This document shows positions 6,601 to 63,139 of a stretch of 64,000 nt of DNA, piece by piece. The DNA lies in the IMG/VR virus record IMGVR_UViG_3300042861_002374. One strand, 5' to 3'. The position numbers and the translations under genes were made by a program. Numbering within the stretch: position 1 is the first letter of the stretch; each line of letters begins with the position of its first letter. This DNA comes from an uncultured virus (IMG/VR IMGVR_UViG_3300042861_002374) (taxonomy: Varidnaviria; Bamfordvirae). The notes beneath the pieces were generated by a model that was not told the origin of the DNA, ran no database searches, and saw nothing but the letters and a program-made list of their open reading frames with translations.

Positions 6601-7420
6601 TAATACCTTCCATTCGTTCTGGATCATTTTGTTCTGATTTTAAGAAATATTCAATCGCTTTTTGGAAATTTCCTTTACCCTGATATTGTTTCCCGAGCAT
6701 CAGGCATGAATAATACTTTTCCTGTGACCAATTATTCAACTTTTCTGCAACAAGAGTATACCATTCAATAGATTCATCATTTTTTCCACAATCTCTGAAA
6801 CTTTGAGCACAATAAAAAGCATATCTACCACTTAAAGATCCTGAAGTTTCCACCTCTTTTTGATAAGCAGCTTTTAAAACAAGAGCGTCTTTATAATATT
6901 TGTCTTTATCTAAACTGCGAGCACCAGATTTTCCTGACTCAATATAATAATTCCCTTCTATAATAAAATCTGTAGCATTTCCTGCTTCTAATGTTAAATA
7001 TTCATGTAAAACTCCTACAAATTTTGACTTTTTGTGTGCAGTAACTAATAGAGGTCGAAGATAAGTAAATCCACTTCCAAACTTCATCTTGTACATGTCA
7101 TGTGTTAGTTTTGGAATAATAACATTTCCGTGAATAGTATCATCGGCATCAAAAATAAAAATATAATCTGCTTTTTTGTATGCTCCCTGAAGCGCTAGAG
7201 TTCGATTATGTCCAAAATCAACCCACTCATGCTGTAGAAGTTCGCCAGGTATTCCTTCTTTTTTGAAAAACTCTTTTATAATTTCACGAGTATTATCTGA
7301 TGATCCTGTATCACAAATAACCCAATAAGAAAAATTAATTTGTTTTACAAGTCTTTCCAATGTTTCCCCAATTATGTGACCTTCGTTTTTAACGATCATA
7401 TTTAAGCATATCTTGCTCAT
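3602..7420 (-). CDS. Multidomain glycosyltransferase: GT2 + TPR-like + GT2-like + GT25 + GT10-like
   Basis: ICLNMIVKNE...DTGSSD...DFGHNRTLAL...DADD (GT2); FYCAQS TPR-like helices; TSCKRLDLF...VDDNS...HLEDD; VVNLKRRQDR...GCALSH...FEDD (GT25); YKYVLSVEN...YATEKIWEAL...PFYWG (GT10 fucosyltransferase signature). Confidence 0.88.
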   Translation of the reverse strand: MSKICLNMIVKNEGHIIGETLERLVKQINFSYWVICDTGSSDNTREIIKEFFKKEGIPGELLQHEWVDFGHNRTLALQGAYKKADYIFIFDADDTIHGNVIIPKLTHDMYKMKFGSGFTYLRPLLVTAHKKSKFVGVLHEYLTLEAGNATDFIIEGNYYIESGKSGARSLDKDKYYKDALVLKAAYQKEVETSGSLSGRYAFYCAQSFRDCGKNDESIEWYTLVAEKLNNWSQEKYYSCLMLGKQYQGKGNFQKAIEYFLKSEQNDPERMEGIIFAVEMLKDSGMHLLVILLYEKYKDYNKNPQDKLFLYGDFYRDIFEFNTSISALKCNNKKLAYSCVKKIILNNIADKVLIDISFKNLKLLVSEMNEDPDTLKLFYMLSTYIHTCTELKEMSVLWKILLKKNRTELTKTSKLKIPEYKNKVFLSITSCKRLDLFIETVNSILNHWDDVGDIDYWFCVDDNSTKEDRKVMRKQYPFMNFYMKKPEEKGHRESMNIIWNKLAEMKPKYWVHLEDDFLFYIKRSYVKDSINLLNLNTDIKQVLFNRAYAETVDNLDIRGYLPIFPGFVVHEHKNGNFPYNNCHYWPHYSFRPSIIDVDTILKLGNYNSENTFFERDYADKWTRAGYKSAFFDQVCCMHTGRLTSEIKSNTVKNAYDLNNENQFNNVNNKIVNNNNVNNNNLNTNIKVVNLKRRQDRKEAMKNLFKSIQFEDYQFVDGVDGKQLEVTNFLSNLFRGNDFGSRSGFIGCALSHYNLWKELLNNPFAEYYVIFEDDISLSSNFKSVYETLKSNNLFKTFDFLFLGYHMFQVNREATKDIYVKESDKLEISEMRNDLNIGACFAYSINKKGASILIDYIEKNGIKHGIDYIVKICNDLKKTEIRPQIVFSEWYEFPGKNVDTDIQRDLSSLTLNDDIEEFTFFKGVDHINDDLFFSDKLSLKECKKKVIETPGCVGFNTLGFFKSKIDINNLKPSQYFNDKDKDGLYVRNTVKAKDEVNVKTKIKLIGNWQSCEQMAQEYGLMSQSDFVLTSEEKADYYIIVNFPSEAEFYDPQKTIIFQMEPWVNDNSKNWGVKTWGIWAEPDPSMFLHVNSHKKFLNPAQWSFNEDLENLPDKKDKAATIISYKTNDVGHQLRIAFTKEMGNIDIYGRENYHNLDSYIGLVPNDNRYNVYSKYKYVLSVENNLEKNYATEKIWEALVCECLPFYWGCPNLENYINPNAFVRLPLEDIEESKRIIEKAIKEDWWSMRIEAIREAKNKIINELGFFPMIKNIIKNNT

Positions 7421-12684: not shown

Positions 12685-12717
12685 ATCTTATATTTATAAT
12701 ATAAGATTTATAATTTT

Positions 12718-16154: not shown

Positions 16155-16215
16155 GTTTTTATGAAATCTTATACTGTTATAAGATTTACAAGAAGAATAC
16201 ACATACTACCAAAAA

Positions 16216-27132: not shown

Positions 27133-27180
27133 GTTTTCTTTGATTAAAATAAAAGATAATTCTTTTATTTTCTTAAATTA

Positions 27181-28563
27181 TTAGTTCTTTCCTAACTCAT
27201 GATTCATATTAAGGCGAGCAACCATTCTTGATATATCACACATTTCTTGTTCACTCTTAACTTTTACAGTACACACAGGATCAAAACCTAATTGACCATA
27301 ACTCATTTGATATATTTTACCAGGTGTATCTCTAACCGTACCGTCGTGATGTATTTTCATATCTTCTGTAAGTTTTACTATTCTTCTTTGCATATATCCA
27401 GAAGTTGCTGTACCCATAGCAGTATCACAAACACCCTCTCTTCCAGACATTGCATGAAAATAAAACTGTCTTGGATTTAAGCCACGAAGGAATCCACGAC
27501 CAATAAATCCTCTTGATTCATATTCCATTTCTGGTTCTAAATCTCCGAATGGATAATGCGGAAGAGAACGTTTACCATGATTAAGAAGAAGAGGAACCCT
27601 CTGACCCTTTAAATTTTGTTGACCTAATAAACCTGTAATTTGTGCTATATTGAAAAAATCACCTTTACTTCCAGAAAGCACTGTAGAAAGAAAATTATTA
27701 TCTTCTGAAAGTGCTTCTTTTGCAATTCTTAACCCAATGTCTTTGGCTTTATTCAAAGATGCATTTATTCTGATTTCACGAATACTTGGATGAGAAGTTG
27801 CTTGTTTTATTGCCTCTGCTTCAATATAGCACTTTCTAACAACGTCCCTAATTTCTTCCTCTTTTGTTACGCCATCTTGATTTACAGTCTGAGGTATTAA
27901 ACAATCACCTAACCCTACAGAAAATCCATCGATTAGTAAATACTGATTAGTAGTAAATTGTATACAATCTATAAAATATGAAGCTGCTTCTGGACCATAC
28001 TCTTTGTGAAGAAGATGATGTATAGAATTATGTGAAGCTCCAATAATGGCTTTGTCTATTGTTCCTTCATATAATACACCCCTCCAAATTTTTACAGTTG
28101 GTTCTGCTGGATTTGCATCGTTTGTCCTTTCGTAGTTAAAATCTAACGGTAAAAAAAGCGAAATTAGACCATGTCCATTGAAACACTGAACTTTTTTATT
28201 CTTTTCTTTTAAAATATTTTTTATGTGATCAATACGCTCTATAACTTCTAAAGAAGACATTACCGATTTACCTGATGTACCAATCTCTTTATTTTTCCTT
28301 GCCAACTCGTCACAAAAACTGTTAAGCTTTTTAGATGACCAAGGTGGAATAGGAAGAGACATTGCGATGTTGAAAAACTGCCCTTTTGTTAATTTTTTAC
28401 TATTTCTTGTCATACGATAAGCTCCGAGCAAAGAATCCTGAACAATAGCCATATTAGGCTTGCTACTTTGAGGAGAAATCATATTCCATTGCGCTGCTGA
28501 CAAATATTTCATCTCAGCCTGTGACTCTAGAGATTGGGGTACATGTATATTCATTTCATCTCC
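27181..28563 (-). CDS. rpb1: RNA polymerase largest subunit (N-terminal half of split Rpb1), exon 2
   Basis: Begins GGA GAT GAA ATG (GDEMN, second half of the catalytic motif); VQDSLLG, SGSKG, HAMSGREG, TATSGYMQRR. Confidence 0.95.
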   Translation of the reverse strand, partial: GDEMNIHVPQSLESQAEMKYLSAAQWNMISPQSSKPNMAIVQDSLLGAYRMTRNSKKLTKGQFFNIAMSLPIPPWSSKKLNSFCDELARKNKEIGTSGKSVMSSLEVIERIDHIKNILKEKNKKVQCFNGHGLISLFLPLDFNYERTNDANPAEPTVKIWRGVLYEGTIDKAIIGASHNSIHHLLHKEYGPEAASYFIDCIQFTTNQYLLIDGFSVGLGDCLIPQTVNQDGVTKEEEIRDVVRKCYIEAEAIKQATSHPSIREIRINASLNKAKDIGLRIAKEALSEDNNFLSTVLSGSKGDFFNIAQITGLLGQQNLKGQRVPLLLNHGKRSLPHYPFGDLEPEMEYESRGFIGRGFLRGLNPRQFYFHAMSGREGVCDTAMGTATSGYMQRRIVKLTEDMKIHHDGTVRDTPGKIYQMSYGQLGFDPVCTVKVKSEQEMCDISRMVARLNMNHELGKN

Positions 28564-28912
28564 CGATGATCTCCCTATGCTTTCACATAGGGTCGGACTG
28601 TATCTTAAGCCGATTCAGGATTGGTAGTCCATCATTATCGACCAACACCCGTGCAGTCTCTGAACGCCTGTCATATCCTTCCATAACGGACTTAGACAGT
28701 AACGCTGCGGATTGCCCAATCCCTAACATTATTACCATTGGGTACGGCTATTAACCGTGTTCCCCAGTTCGTGTTTCCACATACTGGGTGGTAGTTAGGG
28801 CTCTAAGGGGTTTCCCGCATCAAGGTGTTTCGCAAGTATTTTCAAATTTGGAAATACTCACTAGGAGGTAGCACCCTTTTCAGGCCTCCTGTTTTTGACA
28901 GAGGTAAACCTA
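28564..28912 (-). ncRNA. Group I self-splicing intron (IC1-like core, no internal ORF), 349 nt
   Basis: P UUGAUGCGGGAAA (28811-28823), Q AAUCCGCAGC (28704-28713), R GUUCAGAGACUGCA (28652-28665), S AAGAUACAGUCC (28595-28606); P3 AACACCU/GGGUGUU; P1 exon UUUUGAU with IGS GUCAAAA and a U-G pair at the splice site; terminal G at 28564; removal restores NADFDGDEMN in frame. Confidence 0.96.
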
Positions 28913-31807
28913 ATCAAAATCTGCATTAAATCCCTTTGTAACAGATAAATTTATCCTAAATGTCTTGAAATTCATTATTATAACTTGCATTGCAAGCATG
29001 CTTGACTTGTGAAGTGTTGGCTGTCGATTTAGTAATACATAATCTCCATTTTGCAAAGGGCGATCAACAATCCATCCAAGTGATACTTTGTAACTTCTAT
29101 TAGAAACTTTTAAATTTGTGATAAACTGTCCATCGCGTTCTACCTGATCTGATTCTTGTATCAACTCCCTACCATCTACAACTTTTATCAACTCACCTGC
29201 TCTGTGAATAATATCACCATGCATTAAACGAGTACCATGACGAAAACGTTTTAGATCTATTACTGTCTCGCTATCTGGTTTCCACAAAGATTTAATTTTT
29301 CCATCGTCAATCAATTTTTGCATCTCTTCAATGTTGAATTCTGTAACGCGAATTGGAGAAGTCAAAATTTTTGCAATCTCTTCTGGTACACCTAACTCTC
29401 CCATTCGCAATGTAGGATCTGGACCAATCACTGTACGCGCTGTTTGATCACAATTATGTGTAATAGTAGCATCCCCTAGTAAAAAACGATTATTTTTATC
29501 TACTTCAAAACCATAATATTTTCCAATACCATCCTCTACTACTTTGATGTTATAACAAGACATATCTTTTTTAGACGGAGCATAACATTTCTTATGTGGA
29601 AGAAGAGTCGGAATATTTTCAATACCAGCACCTGATATAACTAATTTCAACGCGTTTCCATGTTGTTTTCCATCTTTATTAGTCCATGATGTTTTCTTGT
29701 TAGTCACCGAAGTTCTAAATCCTAGAGATATTGCTATACGCTGTGCCCCATCGATAATTTGTTTGTGATCATAGCATTGAGTTATCGCAATTGTTGTTCC
29801 ATCATTTTCAACTGTGCCATCTGTGTCAATTAAACCAGCTAAAACAAGAAGCCTCGTATTAACATCATTAATAATATAATCTTCAGGAATATGCTTGTTA
29901 CTAACAAGATCATATTCTTTCAATTTTTGTGTCAGAGGATTACAATTATATTCCTTCTTATTAGTTGAAGATATATAAAAATGTATACATTTATCTTTTT
30001 TATAGTTGGAAATCTTACCTCCATTATTAGATGCCCACAAATTCCAATAATTTATTAGTTCTTCATCTATAGAAGTAAATAATGGATCTCTTGCACTACC
30101 ATCTCCTAACCACATTCCTAAAATTCGTGGGTCAAGACTTACAGGTTTGTGTTCCCATTGAATAGGTGTATTTAATTTAACACCTAGCATTAAACGACGA
30201 TCAGTCTCCGGTAATGATAAATAATCTTTAACATGAATATCAATAATAGGATTAACGTCAATAGTGTTTCTGATTTGTTCCATCTCTTCTAATGCTTGTT
30301 CTTTCGTTAATCCAAGAACAACTGCGACTTCAATTGATTTCTTACTCCCATCATCTGTATAATTTAAACGAAAAGTTCCATATGTTTTTCTCTTCTCATT
30401 CCATGTAATTTTTTTATCTTTATCTAGCTTTAGTAAATCTCTTCTTTCCTCTACCTCTTTCAATGCATCATCTTTTGTTTTTGGTGGAATAACAGATACT
30501 CTTTTTACGTGAATCTTTTTATCACTTCTTTCATACCATTTCATAACCCAAGACCCATTTTTACCTAAATTTTCTCTCCAATTGATACAAGCATGTCCAC
30601 AATATTTAAGTGTTAAAATATGTTCGCAACTAATACCATAGTCGTCTCCATTTGATTGTATGACTTTATAAAGCGAACTAGTACCGCTAACCGTATCTAT
30701 CACAGTTCGTGGAGTGCCGTCATCTCCAATAACTATATCTCCAATTTTTATTTGTTCTACTGGTTTAGGTAAACCAGTGTTATACATTAATATTGGAGTA
30801 TTTTCTGTGCAGGCTCTCTTGCCCATCATGTTGTTTCTTATCTGTCCGTCTTTTCCTGTTAGGCGTTCTTTAATACCCTTGATTGGACGTCCATTTGTAG
30901 TGTGCTTTGCTTTTCCCTGACCGTTGTTGAATGTCGTAAGGATACGAAAACGTAAACTTGCTAAAGCGCGCTGACGAAAAGTATCTCCTTTATCTCTTTT
31001 CCTTGATTTTTGGTTACTTTCACATTCTTCATCTTCTTCAATCAAGTTGTTATTTGCTTTAATGATTTCAATATATTGAATTGTTAAGTCATCATCACAT
31101 AACTTATTGTCTGCGCGTACGTATGGCCTATCACATGGTGGAAGCACTGGAAGAACAGAAATAATAAAATTACGCGGATGACAAAGAGCTGGATCAAATC
31201 CTAATAATTCAACATCATTGTTTGAAATATTGTCAAAAACCTTTTTTATTTCCTCTGTTGTTAAAATAATACTAGTCTTATTTTTCTTTCCGTCTTCGTA
31301 CACTAAAGAAAAACTGCTATCTAGTGCAGTGAATTTGATTTTTGGTCGATCCTTACCACATATGATCGGATCTCCATTATCGTCAATTTTACCAGTATGT
31401 TGACAACACATGTCAACCTTTTTTATTTTTTCCAAAATTTTGGAAAAACGTGATTCTCCTTTGTATCTGGATAGTCCGCATATAGAAATTTGATCTTCTT
31501 GTAAAATTAATCTGTAACATTTTAAACAAAAACAATTCAAAAACGCAGTTACTCTTTTGTAATAAAGAGGGTGTACTATAGGTTCATTTAACTCAATATA
31601 TCCAAAATGTCCAGGACATTCTGAAGCATTTTCCTTACACGTTTCACATTTCATAGTTGAATCGGTTGTTCCCATCCTTGGATCATAAATACTACCAATA
31701 CCAGTCTTTTTTGCATTATCAACTTTACAGACTGCCATGCTTAAAATTTCTTCTGGTGAATATATACCAAATGTTATTGATTCAATTTCCCTAGTATCAT
31801 GATTCAT
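28913..31807 (-). CDS. rpb1: RNA polymerase largest subunit (N-terminal half of split Rpb1), exon 1, intein-containing
   Basis: CETC...CPGHFG Zn site, LPVLPPCDRP, RLTGKDGQIRNNMMGKR, NRQPTLH, FNADFD. Confidence 0.96.
29453..30814 (-). mobile_element. Intein (454 aa, residues 332-785) with a LAGLIDADG homing endonuclease
   Basis: Interrupts MMGKR/CDQTARTVIG; block A ACTENTPILM, block B ISCEHIL, LGMWLGDG and LAGLIDTDG, block F YYGFEVD, C-terminal THN followed by Cys+1. Confidence 0.93.
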
Positions 31808-31881: not shown

Positions 31882-32312
31882 TATTACTGGTAAATTGAAA
31901 TTAGGTCAAGAGAAATCAAACAAAGAACTATAGAATAAATTTCAACAAAAACATGAATTTATAACAGAAAAACTAGAGGATTATAAGAGAATGACAATGT
32001 TGTATATATAATGTCACACGTTGCTTTCAACACCAGCGTTTAAAAACCGATTAGCATCATACAACACAGGTGCGCCACAAGATTATAAAGTTTATTATCT
32101 TATCAGAGATGGATGAAGAAAACACACATTCACAAAAATGTACAAATTATATGGTAAATTAATTCTAAAATGGATTGTCAAGTATGAAAAAGATCTTGGT
32201 ATAACAAAAACTTGTATTAAAAAGATTAAACAAAAATCAACTAAATTTTACGGAAATAGGAAAAAATTACGACGTAGACAGTACAAGCCCTGTTAGCTGG
32301 ATTTCATAATTA
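31882..32312 (+). pseudogene. Collapsed, internally deleted relic of the KilA-N/T5orf172 gene family (compare 34771..36564)
   Basis: Ordered blocks match about 35215-35280, 35455-35475, 35535-35610, 35897-35930, 36362-36438 and 36492-36590; no long ORF remains. Confidence 0.85.
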
Positions 32313-32381
32313 TAAATTTGTAATAAAATTTTGTTACAAATTAGTTTTATCTAATCATTCCGAACTTTTTGTTTGGAATGA

Positions 32382-32455
32382 TGGACCTGGACGGACTCGA
32401 ACCGTCGACCTTCGGCTCATAAGACCGATGCTCTAACCAACTGAGCTACAAGTCC
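32382..32455 (-). tRNA. trnI: tRNA-Ile (anticodon UAU)
   Basis: GGACTTG TA GCTC AGTTGGTTA GAGC A TCGGT CTTATGA GCCGA AGGTC GACGG TTCGAGT CCGTC CAGGTCC A forms a full cloverleaf; no intron. Confidence 0.95.
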
Positions 32456-32605
32456 CCAAAGTTTTTCTGTGTGTAGTTTTTTTCTAAAAAATTGAATTTT
32501 TGATGGATATACACAACTTTGGGGACTAAATATCAGAGACCTACCTAAAACTTATCATTTTCATCTCCTCTACTATATAGAAATACTATCTTTAAATCTA
32601 ATTTT

Positions 32606-33103
32606 TTAATATTTTTTGTGCAAAGTAGCTCTAAGACATTCACGATGAAAACTATCGTCAAAAGATATCAGATATTCAGCTGTTATAGGATAAGTGTCTT
32701 CTAAAATTCTTTTAGCCTTAATTGGTTTATCTTCTCCGAAAGGTAAAAGTTCTTTAAACTTGTATGTTTCTTGTAAGTTTCTAAGTCCTACTCCGTATGA
32801 GGGGAGTGTGTCTTCTCCGGCGAAACTAGCACTAAATTGTAAATCTTTTTTAATCAAAGAGAGTTCGTGAAACTGTTCATTTAATAATTGTAATTGTTCT
32901 CGTAACACCGGATTATTTGCTTTGCATATTTTTACGTGTTTATGTAATGATGATTTTAATGTAAATACTGTAGTGCAAAAACAACATTCATATTCTTTTT
33001 CTACACGTTTATTTTGCTTGATTAAACAGTATTTTGCAGTCTTTTGATGTTGTTTTAACGATAATGATGTTTTTAAAATAGCTTTACAATGCACACACTC
33101 CAT
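32606..33103 (-). CDS. Short zinc-finger protein related to the repeat-family N-terminus (possibly truncated)
   Basis: MECVHC...HQKTAKYC and CCFC...HVKIC fingers similar to the 14700 and 45750 genes, without their conserved C-terminal domain. Confidence 0.65.
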   Translation of the reverse strand: MECVHCKAILKTSLSLKQHQKTAKYCLIKQNKRVEKEYECCFCTTVFTLKSSLHKHVKICKANNPVLREQLQLLNEQFHELSLIKKDLQFSASFAGEDTLPSYGVGLRNLQETYKFKELLPFGEDKPIKAKRILEDTYPITAEYLISFDDSFHRECLRATLHKKY

Positions 33104-33231
33104 TTTAATAGATGAAATTGTATATTTAAATATACTTTGGTTAATAATGAAATTTCATCATAAATTACATTTAGTAATTTATTGAACAAATATTTAAAAT
33201 TCACTGTGAAGTTTTATAAAAGACGTAATCT

Positions 33232-33825
33232 TTAGGTGCACACACATGCATACATTGAGTTCCCACAGTCAATACACATTTTAAGATTTCGTCGACAAGT
33301 TGGACATGGTATTCCTTCTTTTTTCACATCCATACATCCATATACTTCTGATTGTTCCAACTTACTTTTAACATAAGTATTCAGACAGGGTAAGCAAAAT
33401 CTGTGACCACAAGTTGTTTCTTCCATAAGATGAAGTTGTACTTCTCGTAAACATATAGCACATTTTTCCTCTGGACTTACAATTCTTCCAGCTGGACAGG
33501 AATCTATACACACAGAGTGATATTGACAAATATATTGTTTTTTTAGTCCTGATTCAAGTTCTTCTAAAGTTGAAAAGCAAAAAGTGTTGTTATTATCAAC
33601 ATCTCTAAAGTGAACGCATCTTTTAGAATATTCACTTTTTATACTTGGAGACCATTCAAAATGAAATTTAGGTCTTGAGTATGTCAAATCATCGCTAAAT
33701 TTCTTAATAAAAACTGATCCTTTTTTACTACATATGTAAAAAAAACGAATCAAAAATAAACTATAATTATTATAGTCGTAATCTAAAATTTCTTCAAAAG
33801 TTTCCTTAGTAATTTGACTTGTCAT
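33232..33825 (-). CDS. RING finger (C3HC4) protein, putative E3 ligase
   Basis: CAIC...CGHRFCLPC...CPTCR. Confidence 0.88.
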   Translation of the reverse strand: MTSQITKETFEEILDYDYNNYSLFLIRFFYICSKKGSVFIKKFSDDLTYSRPKFHFEWSPSIKSEYSKRCVHFRDVDNNNTFCFSTLEELESGLKKQYICQYHSVCIDSCPAGRIVSPEEKCAICLREVQLHLMEETTCGHRFCLPCLNTYVKSKLEQSEVYGCMDVKKEGIPCPTCRRNLKMCIDCGNSMYACVCT

Positions 33826-34054
33826 TTATTATATAAATTTGTAATAAAATTTTGTTACAAATTATTAAGCCCGTAGGTATACGTAGCACTAAATCAAACC
33901 GGAGATTCTTTAGTAATTTGACTTGTCATAAATTTGTAATATTTTTTTACAAATTATTAAAAGACTATGTACTCTTTTTTTGATAAAAAATCAGAATTAA
34001 TTGATGTTGGTACACGGCTTGAATAAATTATTTCGAACAAAATGTTCGAAATAA

Positions 34055-34076
34055 TGAACCAGTCGGGGATTGAACC
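34055..34076 (-). pseudogene. tRNA-Lys 3' fragment (T loop + acceptor 3' strand) with its own 3' hairpin
   Basis: GGTTCAATCCCCGACTGGTTCA is nearly identical to the adjacent tRNA-Lys 3' end; hairpin at 34027-34055. Confidence 0.7.
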
Positions 34077-34099
34077 ATTTTGAACATTTTTCTTCAAAA

Positions 34100-34175
34100 T
34101 GGTGAACCAGGTGGGGATTGAACCCACGACCACGCGGTTAAAAGCCGCGCGCTCTACCTGCTGAGCTACTGGTCC
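34100..34175 (-). tRNA. trnK: tRNA-Lys (anticodon UUU), followed by CCA in the DNA
   Basis: GGACCAG TA GCTC AGCAGGTA GAGC G CGCGG CTTTTAA CCGCG TGGTC GTGGG TTCAATC CCCAC CTGGTTC A CCA forms a full cloverleaf. Confidence 0.95.
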
Positions 34176-34770
34176 CCAAAGTTTATCTGTGTACAGTTTT
34201 TCTCAATAAAAAGTTGATTTTTTTATTTTGCTGGATGTACACAACTTTGGGGACTTCACTTTCTCTCTTGTCCTCCTCCTCTCTACTATATAAAACCTTA
34301 TCTTTAAATCAATTTTATTTTTTCAAACTCAAATTGTAGCAAAAATTTGTAAATTACTTTTTAACTATTTGCAATCAAAATTTGTGTGATCACAATGTTG
34401 AATACTTTCATTCAAGGTCTAGAAAAGAATTAAGCATTTTCCCTTAAAAACGTTATAAACTTGTAATATTAATTAATATTACAAAATAATCATAAACTAA
34501 ATATTTTTAAAAAATGAAATCGGTGAGCTGAACCCACGACCACTAGTTTTTGAATAATTTTGTGAGTTCAATCCCCTCAACCAATAATTAACTTTTCTGA
34601 ATCATTCCGAACTTTTGTTTGAAATGAACTTGGTAGTGATTAAACTTGCTTAAAAGACTTAAAAGATGTGTACATATGAGATCAGCAACGTGGTGTATAA
34701 TGTCATACTTTTCTTTCACTAAGCACATCTCCAATCTAAAGATTTCTATTTATATAAATAGAAAACTGAA

Positions 34771-38766: not shown

Positions 38767-41502
38767 CTACATAGGTGGTAATGTTTTTGTATTTTTATCG
38801 TATTTTACCAAATCATCTTCTTCTAGAATAATAACTTCTCCAGAGTCTACATCATCCTGAAGTGTTCGTATTCTATGTCCATCCCATTTAATACCACGTT
38901 CTGATTCTCCCCACAAACGATCAAAATATTCTTTCACCTCATTTTTGATAGGTAAAGACATATTAGGCCATCCTTCCTTGAACCATTCTTTAAACTGAGC
39001 ATATATTTCAGTAAGAGTCAATGATGCTGAATCGTCATCAATGATGCATTCTTCAATAAATTGACGGTAGACATCATTTTGACGACGATAAATCGCAGTA
39101 GCTTCCCGTACTTTCTCTGGTTCTACTCGTACATTAACTTTCTGACGCCATTGAAGTAAATACCAAGCAAATGCAGAGACTAATCCAGGAATATTCTTAC
39201 CAAACTCTTTGTCCATAGGAAAACGTTTCTGCTTAATTTGCTCTTCAAAAGTTACTGGGCAAGGTTCTCCGGGTTCTACAAATGTTGATTCAAATGGAAT
39301 AACACGAATACGGTTCCAAGTTGCCTTATCAGAATATTTTAGTTTAGGAAGTTTGTTACAAATGAAAGTTAACATAAACATTGGAAAAACTTCTCGAGTG
39401 CTCTTTCCCCTCTCAAAGAGATCACGAGCCCAATAACTATCTCCACCACTCAGCTTCTTTAATTCACCAATATTGAGTTGTTCATCCGCATCTGGTTCTT
39501 CCATCGTAGCATGACGTACTGGAGGAGCTGCCCGAGACAACTCGGGGTTTGCCGAACCTGAAGCAACTTTCTTTCCTGTAAAATATTGTGTATTGAATTT
39601 AATAGCTAGCTCTCCAAGCATCAATTCAAAAAATTTCTGAGTAATAGATTTGGCATTATCTCCTTCTCCTGTCCACATGTATACTTTCTTTTGTTTATTT
39701 CCTCCAACAAATACATCAGAATAAGTATCTAAAAAATATGTTCTAATTGTCTCATCTGGAAATACTTTTGTTAAGAATTCAATAACATTTTGCACAACCT
39801 CATCTGATTCATTATACTCCTTATATTCAATTGGGATTGTTTTATTTATAAAATCCTCTGGACGACCAGAACGAAACTCGTTCAATTTAAGATCGTAAAC
39901 TCCGTTACTAAAACCAATAATATATGGATTTTGATCCAATTTTTGTTTAAAACGACGATCATAAAATACCTCCATCGCTTCTTTCATAATATTATTCTTG
40001 TAAGGAGACGCTTTGAGATTGCTTACTATCTTCTGTACTTGTTTCAGTCGAGCGTTAAACATTGCTTCCTCACCCTTGTCTTTAACAGTTGCAAGTTTTG
40101 TGAACAGTTCAGAACCCATATCGTTATATTTGTTGACAATATCTTCTGAAATTTTTTCTCTCAAGAATACTCCCTCCTCAATCTCTTCCCATTTATGATC
40201 CTTAAATTGATACCATGTTTTACCAGCTATTGAAGCACAAACAAATTCAGTTCCGTATTCAGAAAACAAAACTTTTGCAATGTCATTATGTGAACCGTTC
40301 AAAGACTCTTTTACAAAATGTTCTGCCTGTTCATTCTTGAAAACTTTGTAAAGTTGCGGACTATCTATACTTGCAAAATGCTTGAGAGTACCTAAAGTCA
40401 AATCTTTTTTAACCATCCTCTCCCACTCATATATACAATTTGCTTCATCGTATTTTTCCTCACACCTAGAAGAGAATTCCATCCATTGTTCTAGAGCTTC
40501 TGGACTGGCATCTCCAATGTTGTACAAAATCCATCCGATAGTAATCCACTCATTACGTTCTTCACAACGAAAATCAGCTAGCATAGGTAATAAACGTTCC
40601 GAAATTTTAAGAGCTTCTTCAACAGAAACTTTTAATGGTTTTTTGTTTTTTGTTTTTTGTTCTTGTATCTTTCCCTTCAAAGGTGAAATTAAACCATTCT
40701 TTAGTTCTTGTGTAAGTCTACCATATGGGATTATACTCAGAATTCTTGGTAAAAACCTTTTTACGTCGTGATTAATAGGAATTACCTTTTCTTTCATATC
40801 GTAAATAAGATAGTCTTTAAAAGCATCTTCTAAAGTCTCCTCGGTTCCTTCGGACGTAAAGACCTTTGTAACTTTATACGGATCCATATCTTCGGCTTTT
40901 CTACTTCCATATAACAGCCATGGAACTGTGCAACACGCTTTGTCAATTACAACTGACGAATCTTCATAACCAATATCAGCAAATATTCTCATTTCTTGAG
41001 TTGCATCTTTAACACGAGGAATCAAATGAACTTCTTGATCTACTTTGCTCAAAAAAAGATTTGGAAAATGCAAATGAAACCCATTCTTTACATAAGACGT
41101 TTCTCCAGCAGAAATATAATACATCTGTTTTTCCAGAAGAACACAAAGTAGATTATCATCTGTACATCCTTCTACAATATTTCTGAGAACAGACTGGTAT
41201 ATGTCTATTATCTGTTTTACATGATTTTCTGTATAAAGATGTTCTTCAAACTCTATATCACCTGTATCTTTAACTTTCAAATCTATATCAGCTAGTACAG
41301 GAAGATAATGTTGTGGTTTTTCTGCAATGCCAACTAGAGCATTTTCATCTTCCGAAATTTTGTCGCAATATATATCCCAAAAAGTTTCTAATTTCTCTCG
41401 ATTAAACTGAAATTTTCCTCTCGGTTGAAGCATAGAAACGTGAGTATGGAATACACCATCTACATAATTTTCACGGAGTATTTGTTCTATTGATTGAATC
41501 AT
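38767..41502 (-). CDS. D5R: D5-like primase-helicase (AEP + PriCT-2 + D5_N + SF3 helicase)
   Basis: LADIDL, GFHLHFP, WITIGWIL..W.EFS, GVYDL, GEGDNAKS, CNKLP...ATWNRIRVIPF; AAAATTGA upstream at 41534-41541. Confidence 0.95.
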   Translation of the reverse strand: MIQSIEQILRENYVDGVFHTHVSMLQPRGKFQFNREKLETFWDIYCDKISEDENALVGIAEKPQHYLPVLADIDLKVKDTGDIEFEEHLYTENHVKQIIDIYQSVLRNIVEGCTDDNLLCVLLEKQMYYISAGETSYVKNGFHLHFPNLFLSKVDQEVHLIPRVKDATQEMRIFADIGYEDSSVVIDKACCTVPWLLYGSRKAEDMDPYKVTKVFTSEGTEETLEDAFKDYLIYDMKEKVIPINHDVKRFLPRILSIIPYGRLTQELKNGLISPLKGKIQEQKTKNKKPLKVSVEEALKISERLLPMLADFRCEERNEWITIGWILYNIGDASPEALEQWMEFSSRCEEKYDEANCIYEWERMVKKDLTLGTLKHFASIDSPQLYKVFKNEQAEHFVKESLNGSHNDIAKVLFSEYGTEFVCASIAGKTWYQFKDHKWEEIEEGVFLREKISEDIVNKYNDMGSELFTKLATVKDKGEEAMFNARLKQVQKIVSNLKASPYKNNIMKEAMEVFYDRRFKQKLDQNPYIIGFSNGVYDLKLNEFRSGRPEDFINKTIPIEYKEYNESDEVVQNVIEFLTKVFPDETIRTYFLDTYSDVFVGGNKQKKVYMWTGEGDNAKSITQKFFELMLGELAIKFNTQYFTGKKVASGSANPELSRAAPPVRHATMEEPDADEQLNIGELKKLSGGDSYWARDLFERGKSTREVFPMFMLTFICNKLPKLKYSDKATWNRIRVIPFESTFVEPGEPCPVTFEEQIKQKRFPMDKEFGKNIPGLVSAFAWYLLQWRQKVNVRVEPEKVREATAIYRRQNDVYRQFIEECIIDDDSASLTLTEIYAQFKEWFKEGWPNMSLPIKNEVKEYFDRLWGESERGIKWDGHRIRTLQDDVDSGEVIILEEDDLVKYDKNTKTLPPM

Positions 41503-50636: not shown

Positions 50637-50668
50637 TTCATTTTATAATATTTGATATTATAAAACAC

Positions 50669-52790: not shown

Positions 52791-55700
52791 CTAACCAACA
52801 AACTTAAGTTTAGGTGTAAACAATTCACTTAATTCATTCAACAAATTACGTCTAACCTTATATCTGAATTTGTATTGATTCAACACAAAATCTACAACAC
52901 CAGGATATGCAACAGATAATACCTGATCAAGTGGATTTGCAAGAGCTTTTAAGTAATAAAAGTAATCAATTTTGATAGCATTTTTGTGTCTAGAATAATA
53001 TTCAGCACATTCAACCTTCTCATATTGTTTCGCAGTATGTTTGTCAGGTCCTGTGATCAAATACTCTAAACGAGTACCTGCATCTACTCTTTGACCTCTT
53101 TGTTGCATTCTTTGTGCTAATTGAACTTGAGCTGGTAAACAAAGGAGATAGTATTCTTCTTGATTTTCAGCTCCTTTGTTTTTTAACTGTTCTTCTCGTT
53201 CAGAAAGAATTGAAGAGAGTATAGGAACAGTGTAATCACCTACCTTGGCTTTTCTAACACCTTTTTCATTTGTAAATGCTTCGGCTTGGAGACCACCTGA
53301 ATTTCCTACGGCTTTTGTAACAACAAAATCTGTATAAGGATTACACCCAGAGAACATTTTATTAATTTTTTCAAGGACCCAATACAAAACTTCATCTCTT
53401 GGTGTTTTATCAGCAATGTGATTGATAACACCTTCATAGATTACTCTGACAAAATTACTGTTGTCACGGCGGGCAAGTAATACTCCTTTTTTACCAATGC
53501 TATCACTGTATATTAACTGACCTCGTTTTTTCTCAATCTTTCTATGCATATACCTCTTTTTGGTCAAAATGAAGAAGAAATTATAAATACATCCTTCAAA
53601 CTCTAACTTAATAGGTGGTGGGAACAACTTTGTGAGCTCGTCGGCGACAAACTCTGAATAGTCCCATAATTCTTCATCAGACTTTCCTTCCATTAGAGGA
53701 AAATTGATATAATTTGAATCAGTATCTCCATATACCAATTGACCGTCAAATTTATTTACAATAGTCTCAGCTGTAATTTCTATGTTTTTTCTACCCATAT
53801 AAGTCGTACACATAGCTCCAGGCATAAAAGGTAAGTATCCACGCCTAACTCCCATCGCTCCGTACATACTGTTAGCAGAAACTTTATATGCCAGCTGTCG
53901 TTTGTCAAGAACTCCGATCAAACTATTCAAGGATTCAATTTCTTTCGTGTTATCGTCACCATTTGTTTCTAAAACACCAATTCTTTTCTTGGCTTTAACC
54001 ATATCAACATTACGAGTATGAGAACGTGCATCAAGAAGATTTTGAATAATACTTGGTAATACTCCTCTTGGTTCTTTCAAAAAACGATAGTATCTCTTTG
54101 CACACATTGGAAATTTAGGTTTACTTTTGTTCAAATCTGAGCGTTCTTTGACATAAGGTTTAAGCTCGTCAATCATAGATTTGATTTCATCACCAAATTC
54201 TTTCTTCCTAAACTTGTCTGTCGTTTTATTCTTTTTCTCTCTAATTTTCTTAATCTTTTCTTGTTCTATTTCAATCATTTTGTTTAATTGCATCTTTCTA
54301 ATAATTTTTGGATCATGTTCACACCCGATGTGATCTTCCCATTGCATCACATGACATTTATCATCTGGAATATCTGATTCGTCAGATACCCACGTATGAT
54401 AATCAATATTGTAAGCAATAATAGTAGTCGGATATAGAGATGCAAAATCAAATGGGACAACTTGATTATACTGCCCTGGTACTGGAGGAAACACATGTGC
54501 TCCAACATAACGCTCTGATTCAGATACTTGGTACGCGTCCTTCTCAACAACTATGTTTTCATACATACAATACTTATATAATTGACTGTACACCTTAATC
54601 TGCTGACCTTGTGTGTATAAAGTAAAAATAGGAACACAACAAGTTGCAGCCATCTCTGTGAGCCCTGTCCAAGTCTGTAGCTTGTCCATGAGCTTTACAG
54701 TTAGCTCACTATCTTTAATACAATACAACCCACAAATTCCGATTGCTTTTTTTGCTCTTTTACTATATTCACCATCCTTGTTTTTTGTGACTCCGATACG
54801 ATAGCACTTAAATATCCCTTTTACGCTAAGTGGATCTTTTGTTTCTCCGATAAAATGCTCAGCAATTGTTTTCAATTTGTAGTTGCTAAACTTGAAATCG
54901 CGTTTCACAAGTGGCAAAAGATCAACAAAAACTCTTCCCTCTGCGTCAAGAAATTGAAATTCTTGATTTTTGTATGCAGAAGAAGACCATTTGATTGTTT
55001 TCTCTTTGGCATGTGCATATTTATGAAAACCTTGCTGATCAAAATTGAAGATGCACATGTTAAATTTCGCACGATCAATCATATACGGAATATCAAAACC
55101 CAAGATATTATATCCTACAATAACGTTTGGATTTTCTTCTCTGACAAGATCTGTGAAACCTGTTAAAAGATCTGCCTCAGTATCATACATGTAAATCAGA
55201 ACATCCTGTCCGACAACATCTTGTTCTGGTTGACCCAAAGTAAGCAAATATTTTTCATATTTATCTGATGATTCACCATATCTTGATATTACGCATGAAA
55301 TTTGAAATATTTTATCACCTGGTTTATTTGCATTAGGCATGGCAGATGGATTTGTTGAATTAACTTCAATATCAAATCCCATAATTTTTGGACACGGTAC
55401 TTTGTCACTTACTAGTGGAGATAGATTTTTCCATTGTACTTTAAACTCATGATCGCAAAGAGTTAATTTCTCATCATTTTTTTGAGGTTTACCTGAAAAT
55501 TGTATCCAACCTGCTGTTGAAATTTGTCTACAGCAAGTTAACTGTAAAATAGGATCCGCATCTGATTCATGTATTTTTAATTTAACCCCTCCTATACCTG
55601 CTATGTTTAAAGAACCTCGAAGTTTATAACCAAGAGTCTTTATATCTTTTCTTGAAGAAAAAGAACAAAAGAGAAATGGAAATAGCTTTGTTTTACCATT

Positions 55701-55985
55701 TTGATCAATATGTGCTCCATAAAGACGTTTTTTCATCATTAGCATTTTTTTAATTGGTTTTTGTCTGTTCAACAATTCGTCTATCTTATTTCCAACAAGT
55801 TGAGCCAATCCTGTTGTCCAGTTTATTCTATCTGGTAGTTCGATGTACACATAAGGTGTAAAGTTGTCAACACGAAGACATATATTTTTGTTTTCATCGT
55901 CTACACCGTATATTCGGATTGATGTAATTTCTTCTTCATCATCGTCTATGTGCCAACTGTAGCTAAAGAGTTTGTGTGTCTCCAT
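52791..55985 (-). CDS. polB: Family B DNA polymerase (no intein)
   Basis: FDIE, GYNILGFD, FDFASLYP, KVSANSMYG, YGDTDS, KKRY. Confidence 0.98.
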   Translation of the reverse strand: METHKLFSYSWHIDDDEEEITSIRIYGVDDENKNICLRVDNFTPYVYIELPDRINWTTGLAQLVGNKIDELLNRQKPIKKMLMMKKRLYGAHIDQNGKTKLFPFLFCSFSSRKDIKTLGYKLRGSLNIAGIGGVKLKIHESDADPILQLTCCRQISTAGWIQFSGKPQKNDEKLTLCDHEFKVQWKNLSPLVSDKVPCPKIMGFDIEVNSTNPSAMPNANKPGDKIFQISCVISRYGESSDKYEKYLLTLGQPEQDVVGQDVLIYMYDTEADLLTGFTDLVREENPNVIVGYNILGFDIPYMIDRAKFNMCIFNFDQQGFHKYAHAKEKTIKWSSSAYKNQEFQFLDAEGRVFVDLLPLVKRDFKFSNYKLKTIAEHFIGETKDPLSVKGIFKCYRIGVTKNKDGEYSKRAKKAIGICGLYCIKDSELTVKLMDKLQTWTGLTEMAATCCVPIFTLYTQGQQIKVYSQLYKYCMYENIVVEKDAYQVSESERYVGAHVFPPVPGQYNQVVPFDFASLYPTTIIAYNIDYHTWVSDESDIPDDKCHVMQWEDHIGCEHDPKIIRKMQLNKMIEIEQEKIKKIREKKNKTTDKFRKKEFGDEIKSMIDELKPYVKERSDLNKSKPKFPMCAKRYYRFLKEPRGVLPSIIQNLLDARSHTRNVDMVKAKKRIGVLETNGDDNTKEIESLNSLIGVLDKRQLAYKVSANSMYGAMGVRRGYLPFMPGAMCTTYMGRKNIEITAETIVNKFDGQLVYGDTDSNYINFPLMEGKSDEELWDYSEFVADELTKLFPPPIKLEFEGCIYNFFFILTKKRYMHRKIEKKRGQLIYSDSIGKKGVLLARRDNSNFVRVIYEGVINHIADKTPRDEVLYWVLEKINKMFSGCNPYTDFVVTKAVGNSGGLQAEAFTNEKGVRKAKVGDYTVPILSSILSEREEQLKNKGAENQEEYYLLCLPAQVQLAQRMQQRGQRVDAGTRLEYLITGPDKHTAKQYEKVECAEYYSRHKNAIKIDYFYYLKALANPLDQVLSVAYPGVVDFVLNQYKFRYKVRRNLLNELSELFTPKLKFVG

Positions 55986-58771: not shown

Positions 58772-59536
58772 ATGATAGATCTTTATAGTATACCAGTATA
58801 CTATATCAGTTTCAAAAAAGAAAAAGATCTAGAAAAAAATTTGACTGAAAGAGGGTTTAATAAAATAATTCATTTTAAAGCTATTAATGGGCGCAAGTTT
58901 AAACCAGATTTCTTGCTTAAAAAAAATTTGCTAACTATACGTTCTTATCAAGACCTATTATTAGGCAGACATCAGCATTCAGGAATGCCTAGCATAGGAG
59001 CGATAGGATGTACTATGAGTCATAATGAAATATGGAAATTATGTGTAGAATATGATCTGCCTTATGTAGCCGTAGCGGAAGCTGATTTATATTTGAATGA
59101 GATTACACCACACATTGAAGAAAAAATCAAAGAAATTCTGAAAGAACCAAACTCTGTATTTATGAGTGAAAAAATAAATAAACAAGGAATAGTAACATCA
59201 TTCCAAGGAGCTCACTTTTATATCATTTCTAACTCTGCGTGTAAAGAATTAATAAATAATGTATTTCCTATAGATGTTCAGACTGATTACTACATTGCTC
59301 ACATGGATACTATAAAAAAAATAAATTTAGATGGATTTAAAATTGGTACACAAAAAAAGCATGATAGTTTTATACAAAATTCTTCATGTATTAAATCTAA
59401 ACTACCAACATCTGTATTTCCATATTTAATTATTTTTATATTATTCATATTATTGGTATCTAGCACATTATATCTATTGTATTCTAGAAATAAATTTAGA
59501 AATCAATTACTTTCGCAAAACCTTATAAAAACATAA
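58772..59536 (+). CDS. GT25-family glycosyltransferase, tandem copy 1
   Basis: YYIS, FKAING, GAIGCTMSH..IW, FPIDVQTD; C-terminal TM. Confidence 0.85.
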   Translation: MIDLYSIPVYYISFKKEKDLEKNLTERGFNKIIHFKAINGRKFKPDFLLKKNLLTIRSYQDLLLGRHQHSGMPSIGAIGCTMSHNEIWKLCVEYDLPYVAVAEADLYLNEITPHIEEKIKEILKEPNSVFMSEKINKQGIVTSFQGAHFYIISNSACKELINNVFPIDVQTDYYIAHMDTIKKINLDGFKIGTQKKHDSFIQNSSCIKSKLPTSVFPYLIIFILFILLVSSTLYLLYSRNKFRNQLLSQNLIKT

Positions 59537-59782
59537 ATTTTAACCATGATAAAATGTTATAATTCAAGATAATCTTTCATATATTGAGACTGCATTCTAT
59601 ATCTAAAAAAGGGCAATATTTCATTTGATTTTTATTTTCTTCTTATTATTGGATATATTATAATAAGTACACCTATTCTTGATTATATAGCATTTGCATG
59701 TAGCATTTGCATGTAGCATTATTAAACCACACTCATCACAAAATATAAATGATATAAAATATAAATTATTATGACTAAATAA

Positions 59783-60544
59783 ATGTTTGATCTTTATAGT
59801 ATACCAGTATACTATATCAGTTTCAAAAAAGAAAAAGATCTAGAAAAAAATTTGACTGAACGAGGGTTTAATAAAATAATTCATTTTAAAGCTATTAATG
59901 GGCGCAAGTTTAACCCAGACTTCTTGATTAAAAAAAACTTAATAACTATACGTTCTTATCAAGACCTATTATTAGGTAGACATCAGCATTCAGGAATGTC
60001 TAGCCTAGGAGTTATAGGATGTACTATGAGTCATAATGAAATATGGAAATTATGTGTAGAATATGATCTGCCTTATGTAGCCATAGCGGAAGCTGATTTA
60101 TATTTGAATGAGATTACACCACACATTGAAGAAAAAATCAAAGAAATTCTGAAAGAACCAAACTCTGTATTTATGAGTGAAAAAATAAATAAACAAGGAA
60201 TAGTAACATTCTTCCAAAGAACTCACTTTTATATCATTTCCAACTCTGCGTGTAAAGAATTAATAAATAATGTATTTCCTATAGATGTTCAGACTGATTA
60301 CTACATTGCTCATATGGATACTATAAAAAAAATAAATTTAGATGGATTTATAATTGGTACACAAAAAAAGCATGATAGTTTAATCCAAGATTTTTGTATT
60401 AAATGTAAACTACCAACATCTGTATTTCCATATTTGATTATTTTTATATTATTCATATTATTGGTATGTAGCACATTATATCTATGGTATTCTAGAAATA
60501 AATTTAGAAATCAATTACTTTCTAGAAAACTTATAAAAACATAA
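59783..60544 (+). CDS. GT25-family glycosyltransferase, tandem copy 2
   Basis: Near-identical to copy 1. Confidence 0.85.
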   Translation: MFDLYSIPVYYISFKKEKDLEKNLTERGFNKIIHFKAINGRKFNPDFLIKKNLITIRSYQDLLLGRHQHSGMSSLGVIGCTMSHNEIWKLCVEYDLPYVAIAEADLYLNEITPHIEEKIKEILKEPNSVFMSEKINKQGIVTFFQRTHFYIISNSACKELINNVFPIDVQTDYYIAHMDTIKKINLDGFIIGTQKKHDSLIQDFCIKCKLPTSVFPYLIIFILFILLVCSTLYLWYSRNKFRNQLLSRKLIKT

Positions 60545-60770
60545 ATTTTAACCATGATAAAATGTTATAATTCAACATCATCTTTCATATATTGAGACAT
60601 TCTATATCATTTGATTTTTTTATTTCTTCTTATTATTATTGGATATATTATAATAAGGACACCTATTCTTGATCATGTAGCATTTGCATGTAGCATTTGC
60701 ATGTAGCATTATTAAACCACACTCATCACAACTATAATGATATAAAATATAAATTTTTATGATTAAATAA

Positions 60771-63079: not shown

Positions 63080-63139
63080 TTTATTATTATAAAGATAAAA
63101 ATTAACCTTATTTTTTTTATATATTATCAATCGTTAAAA

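Follow-up and report, generated by a model that had tools for sequence, protein, structure and literature searches.

Comparison with Described Systems

Giant viruses of the Mimiviridae are said to follow a hairpin rule, reportedly set out by Byrne et al. in 2009 according to papers that cite it, under which a hairpin contained in an RNA marks the 3′ end of that RNA. We analyzed a 64,000-nucleotide stretch of DNA (hereafter, the window) from an uncultured virus (IMG/VR record IMGVR_UViG_3300042861_002374), in which two tRNA genes, tRNA-Ile(UAU) and tRNA-Lys(UUU), are each preceded by a leader whose perfect inverted repeat runs across the −1/+1 junction into the first nucleotides of the tRNA. 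The helix formed by these arms (the leader helix) appears at nearly every tRNA of the clade, with 8 ± 1 bp below the −1/+1 junction and 3–6 bp reaching into the tRNA, and probably marks where the virus cuts the tRNA from a longer transcript. In likeness to the hairpin rule, AT-rich perfect hairpins of 9–14 bp with short loops stand at transcript boundaries, 22 of 40 open reading frames (ORFs) in the window obey the rule, and the 3′ hairpins of the window tRNAs fit it directly. The 5′ hairpins of the window clade differ from it, being located at the start of an RNA, embedding its first 3–6 nt, and covarying with the tRNA; they are alike in form but not in position. In Mimiviridae, the RNase III-like R343/Mg559 has been found to nick gene-end palindromes, after which polyadenylation follows (Priet et al. 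2015; PMC4402537); the main text of that paper mentions tRNA 0 times.

The RNase III stalk of bacterial pre-rRNA (and of some tRNA) likewise buries a mature RNA end in a duplex with flanking sequence, forming a nuclease substrate. In that stalk, however, leader and trailer pair with each other around the entire RNA, whereas in the window cassettes both arms lie upstream (leader plus tRNA nt 1–6) and the 3′ end has a separate hairpin. The TMERs of murine gammaherpesvirus 68 are RNA polymerase III (Pol III) products in which hairpins follow a tRNA-like part and are released by tRNase Z, and they too join viral tRNA-type genes to hairpins, with processing sites that double as hairpin-release sites. 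Their arrangement, in which a single Pol III unit joins a tRNA-like part to downstream pre-miRNA hairpins of at least ~20 bp, was not found at this locus, where the key hairpin instead precedes and overlaps the tRNA, runs of T5–T8 lie in its loop, and the 3′ hairpins are 10–12 bp. Leaderless transcription of tRNAs and life without RNase P are known from Nanoarchaeum equitans, which offers a likeness in tRNA 5′ ends formed without RNase P. There, the promoter stands at a fixed distance from +1, whereas here an upstream box lies 52–155 nt upstream (over 17 metagenomic cassettes) of a tRNA with a structured leader.

Within the parts of the literature that our search covered, with Byrne et al. 2009 outside this coverage, no hairpin overlapping the 5′ ends of giant-virus tRNAs is described. 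The hairpin rule itself is known; what appears to be new here is the presence of signals of the hairpin-rule type at tRNA 5′ ends.

The tRNA-Ile and tRNA-Lys Cassettes

Both cassettes lie on the reverse strand and comprise the following features (here and below, a caret marks the −1/+1 junction):

34283–34316 (−): upstream box of tRNA-Lys, the presumed promoter; AAAATTGA (34309–34316) overlapping GATTTAAAGA-N8-TATATAGTAG (34283–34310)
34243–34254 (−): Lys leader helix, 5′ arm GUCCCCAAAGUU
34187–34242 (−): Lys inner hairpin module, GUGUACA..(CAGCAA, A-rich, mini-hairpin UCAAC-U5-A-UUGA)..UGUACACAG
34172–34183 (−): Lys leader helix, 3′ arm AACUUUGG^GGAC, in which 34172–34175 are tRNA nt 1–4
34100–34175 (−): tRNA-Lys(UUU), CCA encoded (73 nt without CCA, 34103–34175), by ARAGORN and Rfam
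34074–34103 (−): tRNA-Lys 3′ hairpin ACCAUUUUGAA-loop-UUCAAAAUGGU, 11 bp, from discriminator A73
34028–34074 (−): tandem relic repeating the tRNA-Lys T-arm and 3′ acceptor strand (T-arm/acceptor copy, 34055–34074; its own 12-bp hairpin, 34028–34054)
32570–32598 (−): upstream box of tRNA-Ile, GATTTAAAGA-N9-TATATAGTAG, a type also found in relatives
32515–32527 (−): Ile leader helix, 5′ arm AGUCCCCAAAGUU
32464–32514 (−): loop of the Ile helix with a degraded inner module (GUGUAU..CUACACAC)
32451–32463 (−): Ile leader helix, 3′ arm AACUUUGG^GGACU, in which 32451–32455 are tRNA nt 1–5
32382–32455 (−): tRNA-Ile(UAU), no CCA encoded, by ARAGORN and Rfam
32354–32382 (−): tRNA-Ile 3′ hairpin AUCAUUCCAAAC-loop-GUUCGGAAUGAU, 12 bp with one A·C, from discriminator A73

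The leader helix of tRNA-Lys is 12 bp long and contains tRNA nt 1–4, and that of tRNA-Ile is 13 bp counting a flanking A-T pair (32451–32463 with 32515–32527) and contains nt 1–5. The stem motif GTCCCCAAAGTT occurs in the window in exactly four copies, which make up the inverted pairs 32452–32463/32515–32526 and 34172–34183/34243–34254. An asymmetric bulge on the 3′ side separates the outer helix from the inner stem (GUGUACA/UGUACAC in Lys), and the leader loops and arms hold runs of 5–8 T. In minimum free energy folds of the whole precursors, the full leader helix forms and the acceptor stem is lost, with z-scores of −4.9 and −7.5. A model given the sequence alone (the sequence-only reading) had described a shared upstream layout with perfect inverted arms (13 bp in Ile, 12 bp in Lys) reaching tRNA nt 1–5 and 1–4, 3′ hairpins of 10–12 bp that start at the discriminator or CCA, stems that are kept while loops diverge, and a leader duplex that competes with the acceptor stem. 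Each of these was borne out, the stems and loops by alignments of cassettes and the competition in silico, where the two conformers are nearly isoenergetic.

Directly 3′ of the tRNA-Lys hairpin, the relic has a repeat unit of 48 nt, and its hairpin is older-looking and similar to the Lys 3′ hairpin of relatives.

Relatives of the cassettes were gathered by pattern scans of viral and metagenomic contigs. All 15 matches to the upstream box in viral contigs (15/15) lie on cassette-bearing contigs, four of which were inspected directly, with the rest overlapping known cassette loci. Among 99 metagenomic box matches, 17 have a tRNA-Lys(UUU) or tRNA-Ile(UAU) beginning 52–155 nt downstream and 81 are without a downstream tRNA; the majority of the latter represent the TATAAAGTAG variant and are apparently due to chance, while L056, L063, L098, L101, and L107 are cassette relics. 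In public contigs, the box thus appears essentially restricted to positions ahead of such cassettes. Two gene orders were noted: a tandem order (long hairpin, Lys, 3′ hairpin, 13 nt, short hairpin, Ile, 3′ hairpin) and the window type, in which the Lys and Ile cassettes lie apart with one box each. Another box match (L093), with a tRNA-Arg 490 nt away and 41% GC, was discarded as unrelated.

Conservation and Geometry of the Leader Helix

We collapsed 98 instances from related metagenomic giant-virus contigs into 28 distinct Lys and Ile cassette tRNAs, which are related to each other, such that counts among them are not of independent events. A contiguous helix of 10–14 bp crosses the −1/+1 junction in 27 of the 28. 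The exception is a pseudo-copy, of the same sequence in L021, L036, and L056, which lies 2.4 kb upstream of an intact cassette and contains the box, leader, palindrome, and first 32 nt of tRNA-Lys before continuing into unrelated DNA; an uncompensated mismatch leaves 6 bp of its helix, as expected of a relic freed from selection. Pairing is otherwise kept across at least six unrelated stem sequences (GUCCCCAAAG.., UCCUGAGAGCUUA.., GGUCCAAAAAAG.., AUCCAAAAAGAA.., GUCCCCAAAUAA.., and AUGUCCUCAAACUU..), and at least two Watson–Crick pair types occur at each of positions +4, −1, −2, −4, −6, −7, and −8. The 5′ arm also tracks tRNA nt 4–6, with GGAU pairing to AUCC and GGACAU to AUGUCC. Hence, the covariation on which the sequence-only reading had staked the duplex is present, as compensatory changes that extend up to tRNA nt 4–6. 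The stems include:

GUCCCCAAAG..CUUUGG^GGAC, in a long- or short-loop form
GUCCCCAAAUAA..UUAUUUGG^GGAC, in L065
GUCCCUAAAUA..UAUUUAG^GGAC, in L091
GGUCCAAAAAAG..CUUUUUU^GGACC, in L125
AUCCAAAAAGAA..UUCUUUUU^GGAU, in L126
UCCUGAGAGCU..AGCUCUCA^GGA, in L057
UCCUGAAAGCU..AGCUUUCA^GGA, in L146
AUGUCCUCAAACUU..AAGUUUGA^GGACAU, in L286

Measured from −1 to the loop side, the helix is 7–9 bp long in 26 of the 28 cassettes, and it contains three tRNA nucleotides in 2 cassettes, four in 13, five in 10, and six in 3. The distance from the hairpin center to +1 is 9–10 nt in seven intact cassettes with loops of 3–4 nt, 10–13 nt in five with loops of 8–9 nt, and ~31–37 nt in the long forms, and the 7–9 bp below the junction is the steadier measure. 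When 14 long-form cassettes are aligned, 92.9% of cells are paired in the named structure, compared to 26–48% when the partners are slid, with both sides changed in 11 of 37 pairs; the cloverleaf pairs 100% of cells on the same alignment.

As controls, only 2.75% of 2800 leader shufflings produced a helix of 10 bp or longer across the junction, and none of 17 tRNAs from five unrelated viral loci reached 10 bp (0/17). We also compared 18 distinct tRNA-Ile(UAU) genes with near-identical bodies. Helices of 12–14 bp precede all nine that start with GGAC (9/9), whereas none of the nine from other giant-virus lineages (0/9; L276, L277, L282, L283, L287, L288, L293, L295, and L298) exceeds 7 bp; acceptor stems of these hairpin-less genes read UCUCGUG, GCACUUG, GCUCUUG, UCUCACG, and GAGAGUG. 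Two loci from a short-stem pattern scan (L011 and L019) were GC-rich, coding, and unrelated, and were dropped as chance matches.

The arrangement is also seen in another tRNA array (Gly, Thr, Gln, Leu, Leu, Leu) on a giant-virus contig (L152/L192), which was located via a scan for the inner module. A scan for ACCTCATA..TATGAGGT returned at least 119 stretches, mostly unrelated, of which L192 was used here and the remainder were the source of the control tRNAs. The tRNA-Gln and the three tRNA-Leu genes of L192 each have a 10–12 bp hairpin whose 3′ arm ends in the first 3–4 tRNA nucleotides. Their forms are:

ACCUCAUAUAU..AUAUAUG^AGGU
..AUAUAUGA^GGU
ACCUCAUACGG-guaa-CCGUAUGA^GGU
ACCCGAAAGG-ucu-CCUUUCG^GGU

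The tRNA-Gly of this array has a 9-bp outer helix (GCUAAAAUC/GAUUUUA^GC) enclosing a module-like inner hairpin, and its tRNA-Thr has only a bulged, weaker helix. Each L192 spacer holds a single hairpin that always overlaps the next tRNA and lies 7–9 U/A-rich nt from the preceding one, and T-runs resembling Pol III terminators follow some of the tRNAs. The covariation, the unrelated stems, the recurrence in this array, and the loss in the pseudo-copy show that the duplex is maintained by selection and linked to the start of the tRNA.

A highly improbable explanation places the palindrome at the DNA level, as the binding site of a dimeric factor, a promoter element within which Pol III-type transcription would begin, or a mobile or recombination-prone hairpin repeat directed at the starts of tRNAs. 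It gains from the rearrangement-prone nature of the cassettes (the 48-nt tandem relic, the truncated copy 2.4 kb upstream, and tRNA-less tandem modules) and from the terminator-like T-runs in L192. However, protein-binding sites conserve sequence, whereas here it is the pairing that persists, and no target-site duplications were seen. G·U outnumbers A·C by 5 to 1 in the 5′ hairpins, which is weak evidence in the same direction. A dispersed repeat akin to miniature inverted-repeat transposable elements, which the sequence-only reading had named as a finding that would count against it, did not turn up in the window, where the stem motif and module occur only at the two tRNAs; tRNA-less module copies in relatives are tandem and lie inside or adjoining cassettes.

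The Inner GUGUAC..GUACAC Module

The GUGUAC..CAGCAA..GUACAC hairpin is a separable, and probably optional, module nested in the loop of the leader helix. It is free-standing 5′ of a short hairpin in L065, L091, and L126, is placed after the tRNA 3′ hairpin in L057, L112, L139, and L146, and occurs twice behind the box in L050 and L153 (430–650), each copy there ending in the first ~9 nt of a lost tRNA; L155 (200–620) has a tRNA-less tandem row. The idea of one shared tRNA cassette from the sequence-only reading thus stands for the helix overlapping the 5′ end, but not for the cassette as a single unit. One of the module patterns used in our scans matched the TGGTAC subtype only. An Rfam 15 scan of the leader, hairpin, and module found no family at gathering or E-value thresholds, with the gathering threshold passed only by the tRNAs (twice) and a group I intron; sub-threshold matches near the cassettes were weak and overlapped the tRNAs.

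For the inner module alone, a role as the gene or precursor of a small RNA, either miRNA-like or protein-binding, that rides on the tRNA units would account for a sequence-conserved, separable element whose stems show compensatory changes (helix 2 of the long-form alignment) and which sits in varied positions, before short hairpins, after tRNAs, and in tandem. We consider this a poor candidate, as the inner stem is only 7–8 bp, or 19–20 bp and bulge-interrupted when joined with the outer helix, no Rfam family matches it, and the short hairpins that lack the module yet keep the overlap would be left unexplained.

In four hairpin-less lineages (L276, L283, L287, and L288), a ..ACAGCAA.. motif was seen 15–30 nt after tRNA-Ile; given its likeness to the CAGCAA core of the module, the two may have a signal in common.

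3′ Hairpins and Gene Ends

In all cassettes seen, the tRNA 3′ hairpins begin at the discriminator (nt 73–75) and are 10–12 bp long. Hairpins of the same size class, 9–13 bp with loops of 3–14 nt, follow the window ORFs; in the 22 of 40 noted above, a perfect hairpin (9 bp or longer) lies no more than 90 nt past the stop codon, compared to 1 of 400 random coding windows. The tRNA 3′ hairpins belong to the ordinary gene-end class of this genome, of the Mimiviridae hairpin-rule type, and hence are not specific to tRNAs. Thus, although the sequence-only reading was right that a hairpin starts at the discriminator, its inclusion in a tRNA-specific cassette is undercut by the same class following the ORFs.

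The 5′ hairpin itself might be ordinary punctuation that ends or stabilizes the RNA upstream, its overlap with the tRNA being a by-product of tight packing. Its size equals that of the gene-end hairpins, and the single spacer hairpin of L192 could end the preceding tRNA. Nevertheless, the hairpin is present at the leading tRNA of each cassette, which has only a leader upstream; in tandem Lys–Ile units, the space between the tRNAs holds a distinct 5′ hairpin in addition to the 3′ hairpin; and an overlap is seen in 27 of 28 cassettes, with covariation at tRNA nt 4–6. In L192, too, the hairpin stands 7–9 nt from the previous tRNA yet always overlaps the next. Taken with these points, punctuation is quite improbable as the source of the 5′ hairpins.

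In 10 distinct cassettes, the Ile 3′ hairpin retains a single A·C mismatch as read on the tRNA strand; this site would be G·U if the opposite strand were read and is A-U in other lineages. Convergent gene pairs in the window have one perfect 10–13 bp palindrome between their stop codons (e.g., 2654–2700, 12685–12717, 16155–16215, 27133–27180, and 50637–50668), which could be an end signal for both strands.

A Proposed Route to the tRNA 5′ End

We favor a reading in which the leader helix is an RNA processing signal and the tRNA 5′ end is set by a nuclease specific for double strands, probably the RNase III-like one of the hairpin rule, and put its probability somewhat below even (roughly 0.45). 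The viral RNA polymerase would make the tRNAs as leader-containing precursors from the upstream box, and the leader would fold onto itself and the first 3–6 tRNA nucleotides, placing the mature 5′ end inside a helix of ~12–13 bp, ~8 bp from the loop side and 3–6 bp from the open end. This helix would act as the recognition and cleavage platform for a nuclease cutting within double-stranded RNA, most likely the RNase III-like nicker of gene-end hairpins in Mimivirus-like viruses. The cut would generate the 5′ terminus of the tRNA, or open the RNA a few bases away from it, with no need for host RNase P; in a variant, endonucleolytic entry would be followed by 5′–3′ trimming to the acceptor stem. 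The hairpin at the discriminator, as an ordinary gene-end signal, would give the first 3′ cut, and the inner GUGUAC hairpin would be an optional add-on. We infer here that the leader is transcribed, that the helix is cut, by which enzyme and where, and that RNase P is not required.

RNase P cleaves at a junction between single strand and duplex, and a duplex-cutting enzyme suits this site because the scissile bond is paired on both sides. T-runs terminate Pol III, and the T5–T8 runs would stop it before the tRNA; therefore, a leader-containing precursor points to the viral polymerase. Mimivirus tRNAs have been observed in polyadenylated form, with the viral polymerase considered their source (PMC4810235), and the RNase III-like R343 of Mimivirus cleaves inside gene-end hairpins (PMC4402537).

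Several observations weigh against a nuclease cutting the leader helix. The overlap spreads over 3–6 nt, such that a ruler measuring from the open end would sometimes miss +1, and the weaker Gly and Thr helices of L192 also speak against a simple open-end ruler. Helices of 12–13 bp are short for classical RNase III substrates. Ten of the 13 outer-helix pairs are invariant in the 14 long-form cassettes and mostly uninformative there, and the covariation signal comes mostly from comparing different hairpin types. As for strand asymmetry, the count of G·U versus A·C in the 3′ hairpins (2 versus 10) runs opposite to that in the 5′ hairpins, although it derives from one inherited site. Since other giant-virus lineages carry near-identical tRNA-Ile bodies without the hairpin, the device is lineage-specific and dispensable for giant-virus tRNAs in general. 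A search of sequencing runs with this region found 20 DNA runs and zero RNA runs. Finally, neither a Ribonuclease_3 domain nor a viral poly(A) polymerase was found in the 36 window ORFs scanned against Pfam (28 of those of at least 150 aa plus 8 near the cassettes), the former in agreement with the earlier remark that no RNase III gene is visible in the window.

Alternatively, the helix may be a folding switch or protective clamp that transiently occupies the 5′ acceptor strand until its 3′ partner has been synthesized, thereby blocking misfolding or 5′ exonucleases or delaying maturation, before strand exchange gives the cloverleaf; the 5′ end would then be made by host RNase P, or by a 5′–3′ exonuclease after a cut elsewhere. 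Modeled in nine cassettes, the energy difference between the full helix and a cloverleaf whose leader hairpin is shortened is −0.6 to +3.3 kcal/mol in eight, near-equal energies that fit a switch, and +7.2 kcal/mol in the ninth, the window Ile. The first bases of the 5′ arm are those of the tRNA's own 3′ acceptor strand, and the helix is dispensed with in other lineages, both of which favor this explanation. On the other hand, the hairpin left over in the cloverleaf conformer ends at −1, with G-C at −1/−2 in most cassettes, and therefore RNase P, going by its known substrate requirements, would have no single-stranded leader beside the cleavage site. The constant 8 ± 1 bp below the junction would also be unnecessary for a clamp. 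We regard a switch or clamp as unlikely.

RNase P is the near-universal enzyme of 5′ maturation and is mainly nuclear or organellar. In those parts of the literature that we examined, there is no account of how giant viruses with cytoplasmic factories convert capped, leader-bearing transcripts into mature tRNAs. A conserved, covarying helix that buries the 5′ site is a concrete signal for virus-specific tRNA maturation and a possible second job for the hairpin-rule nuclease, and the hairpin-bearing and hairpin-less lineages, on near-identical tRNA-Ile, form a natural comparison for finding the enzyme. The fuller claim, that a clade of freshwater Mimivirus-like giant viruses has RNase P-free tRNA 5′ maturation in which the RNase III-like nuclease of mRNA 3′ ends cuts a ~12-bp helix at or next to +1, is doubtful; if true, the same machinery would serve mRNA 3′ ends and tRNA 5′ ends, and the route would be an undescribed one for tRNA 5′ maturation in a eukaryotic cell. 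If RNase P still cuts, the helix would be a clear leader-encoded folding switch on a tRNA.

Viral Affiliation and Genome Context

The window is AT-rich (~30% GC) giant-virus DNA, and its marker genes are as follows:

52791–55985 (−): family-B DNA polymerase (PolB)
38767–41502 (−): D5-type primase-helicase
28910–31807 (−): upstream Rpb1 ORF, with an intein (Hint plus LAGLIDADG homing endonuclease, ~residues 335–784)
28574–28916 (−): group I intron (Rfam RF00028, 66.9 bits), which splits the Rpb1 ORFs
27181–28554 (−): downstream Rpb1 ORF

The AAAATTGA octamer lies 20–60 nt 5′ of Rpb1, D5, and two further ORFs, and PolB is preceded by AAAATTGG, a one-off variant of it. Across the whole window, AAAATTGA is not enriched (20 found versus 21 expected), and only its placement, at four ORFs and in the Lys box, is suggestive of a promoter role. 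According to the Bodo saltans virus paper (PMC5871332), AAAAATTGA is the early promoter of mimiviruses and CroV. The sequence-only reading had pointed to irido- and marseilleviruses; instead, because AAAATTGA or AAAATTGG stands upstream of these key genes and the genome obeys the hairpin rule with its common gene-end hairpins, the virus looks Mimivirus-like (Imitervirales-type). A search with PolB gave 1530 matches, showing that relatives are numerous, with only metagenomic or generic entries among the matches listed. The 20 DNA runs that contain the region come from lake and freshwater metagenomes.

Rpb1 (27181–31807, −) is interrupted twice, by the intein and the group I intron. Repeats suggest a recent local rearrangement between the two tRNA cassettes: at 33799–33955, the start (~50 nt) of a RING-finger ORF (33232–33825) and the region upstream of it occur again 104 nt farther upstream, and a palindrome of 33 nt, TATAAATTTGTAATAAAATTTTGTTACAAATTA, stands at both 32311–32343 and 33832–33864, 1521 nt apart, with 100% identity. 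Elsewhere in the window, we noted three tandem paralogous ORFs of glycosyltransferase family 25, of ~253 aa each and with near-identical upstream regions. The glycosyltransferase regions span 58772–61535 (+), 61562–63130 (−), and 3602–7420 (−), with larger multi-domain glycosyltransferases close by.

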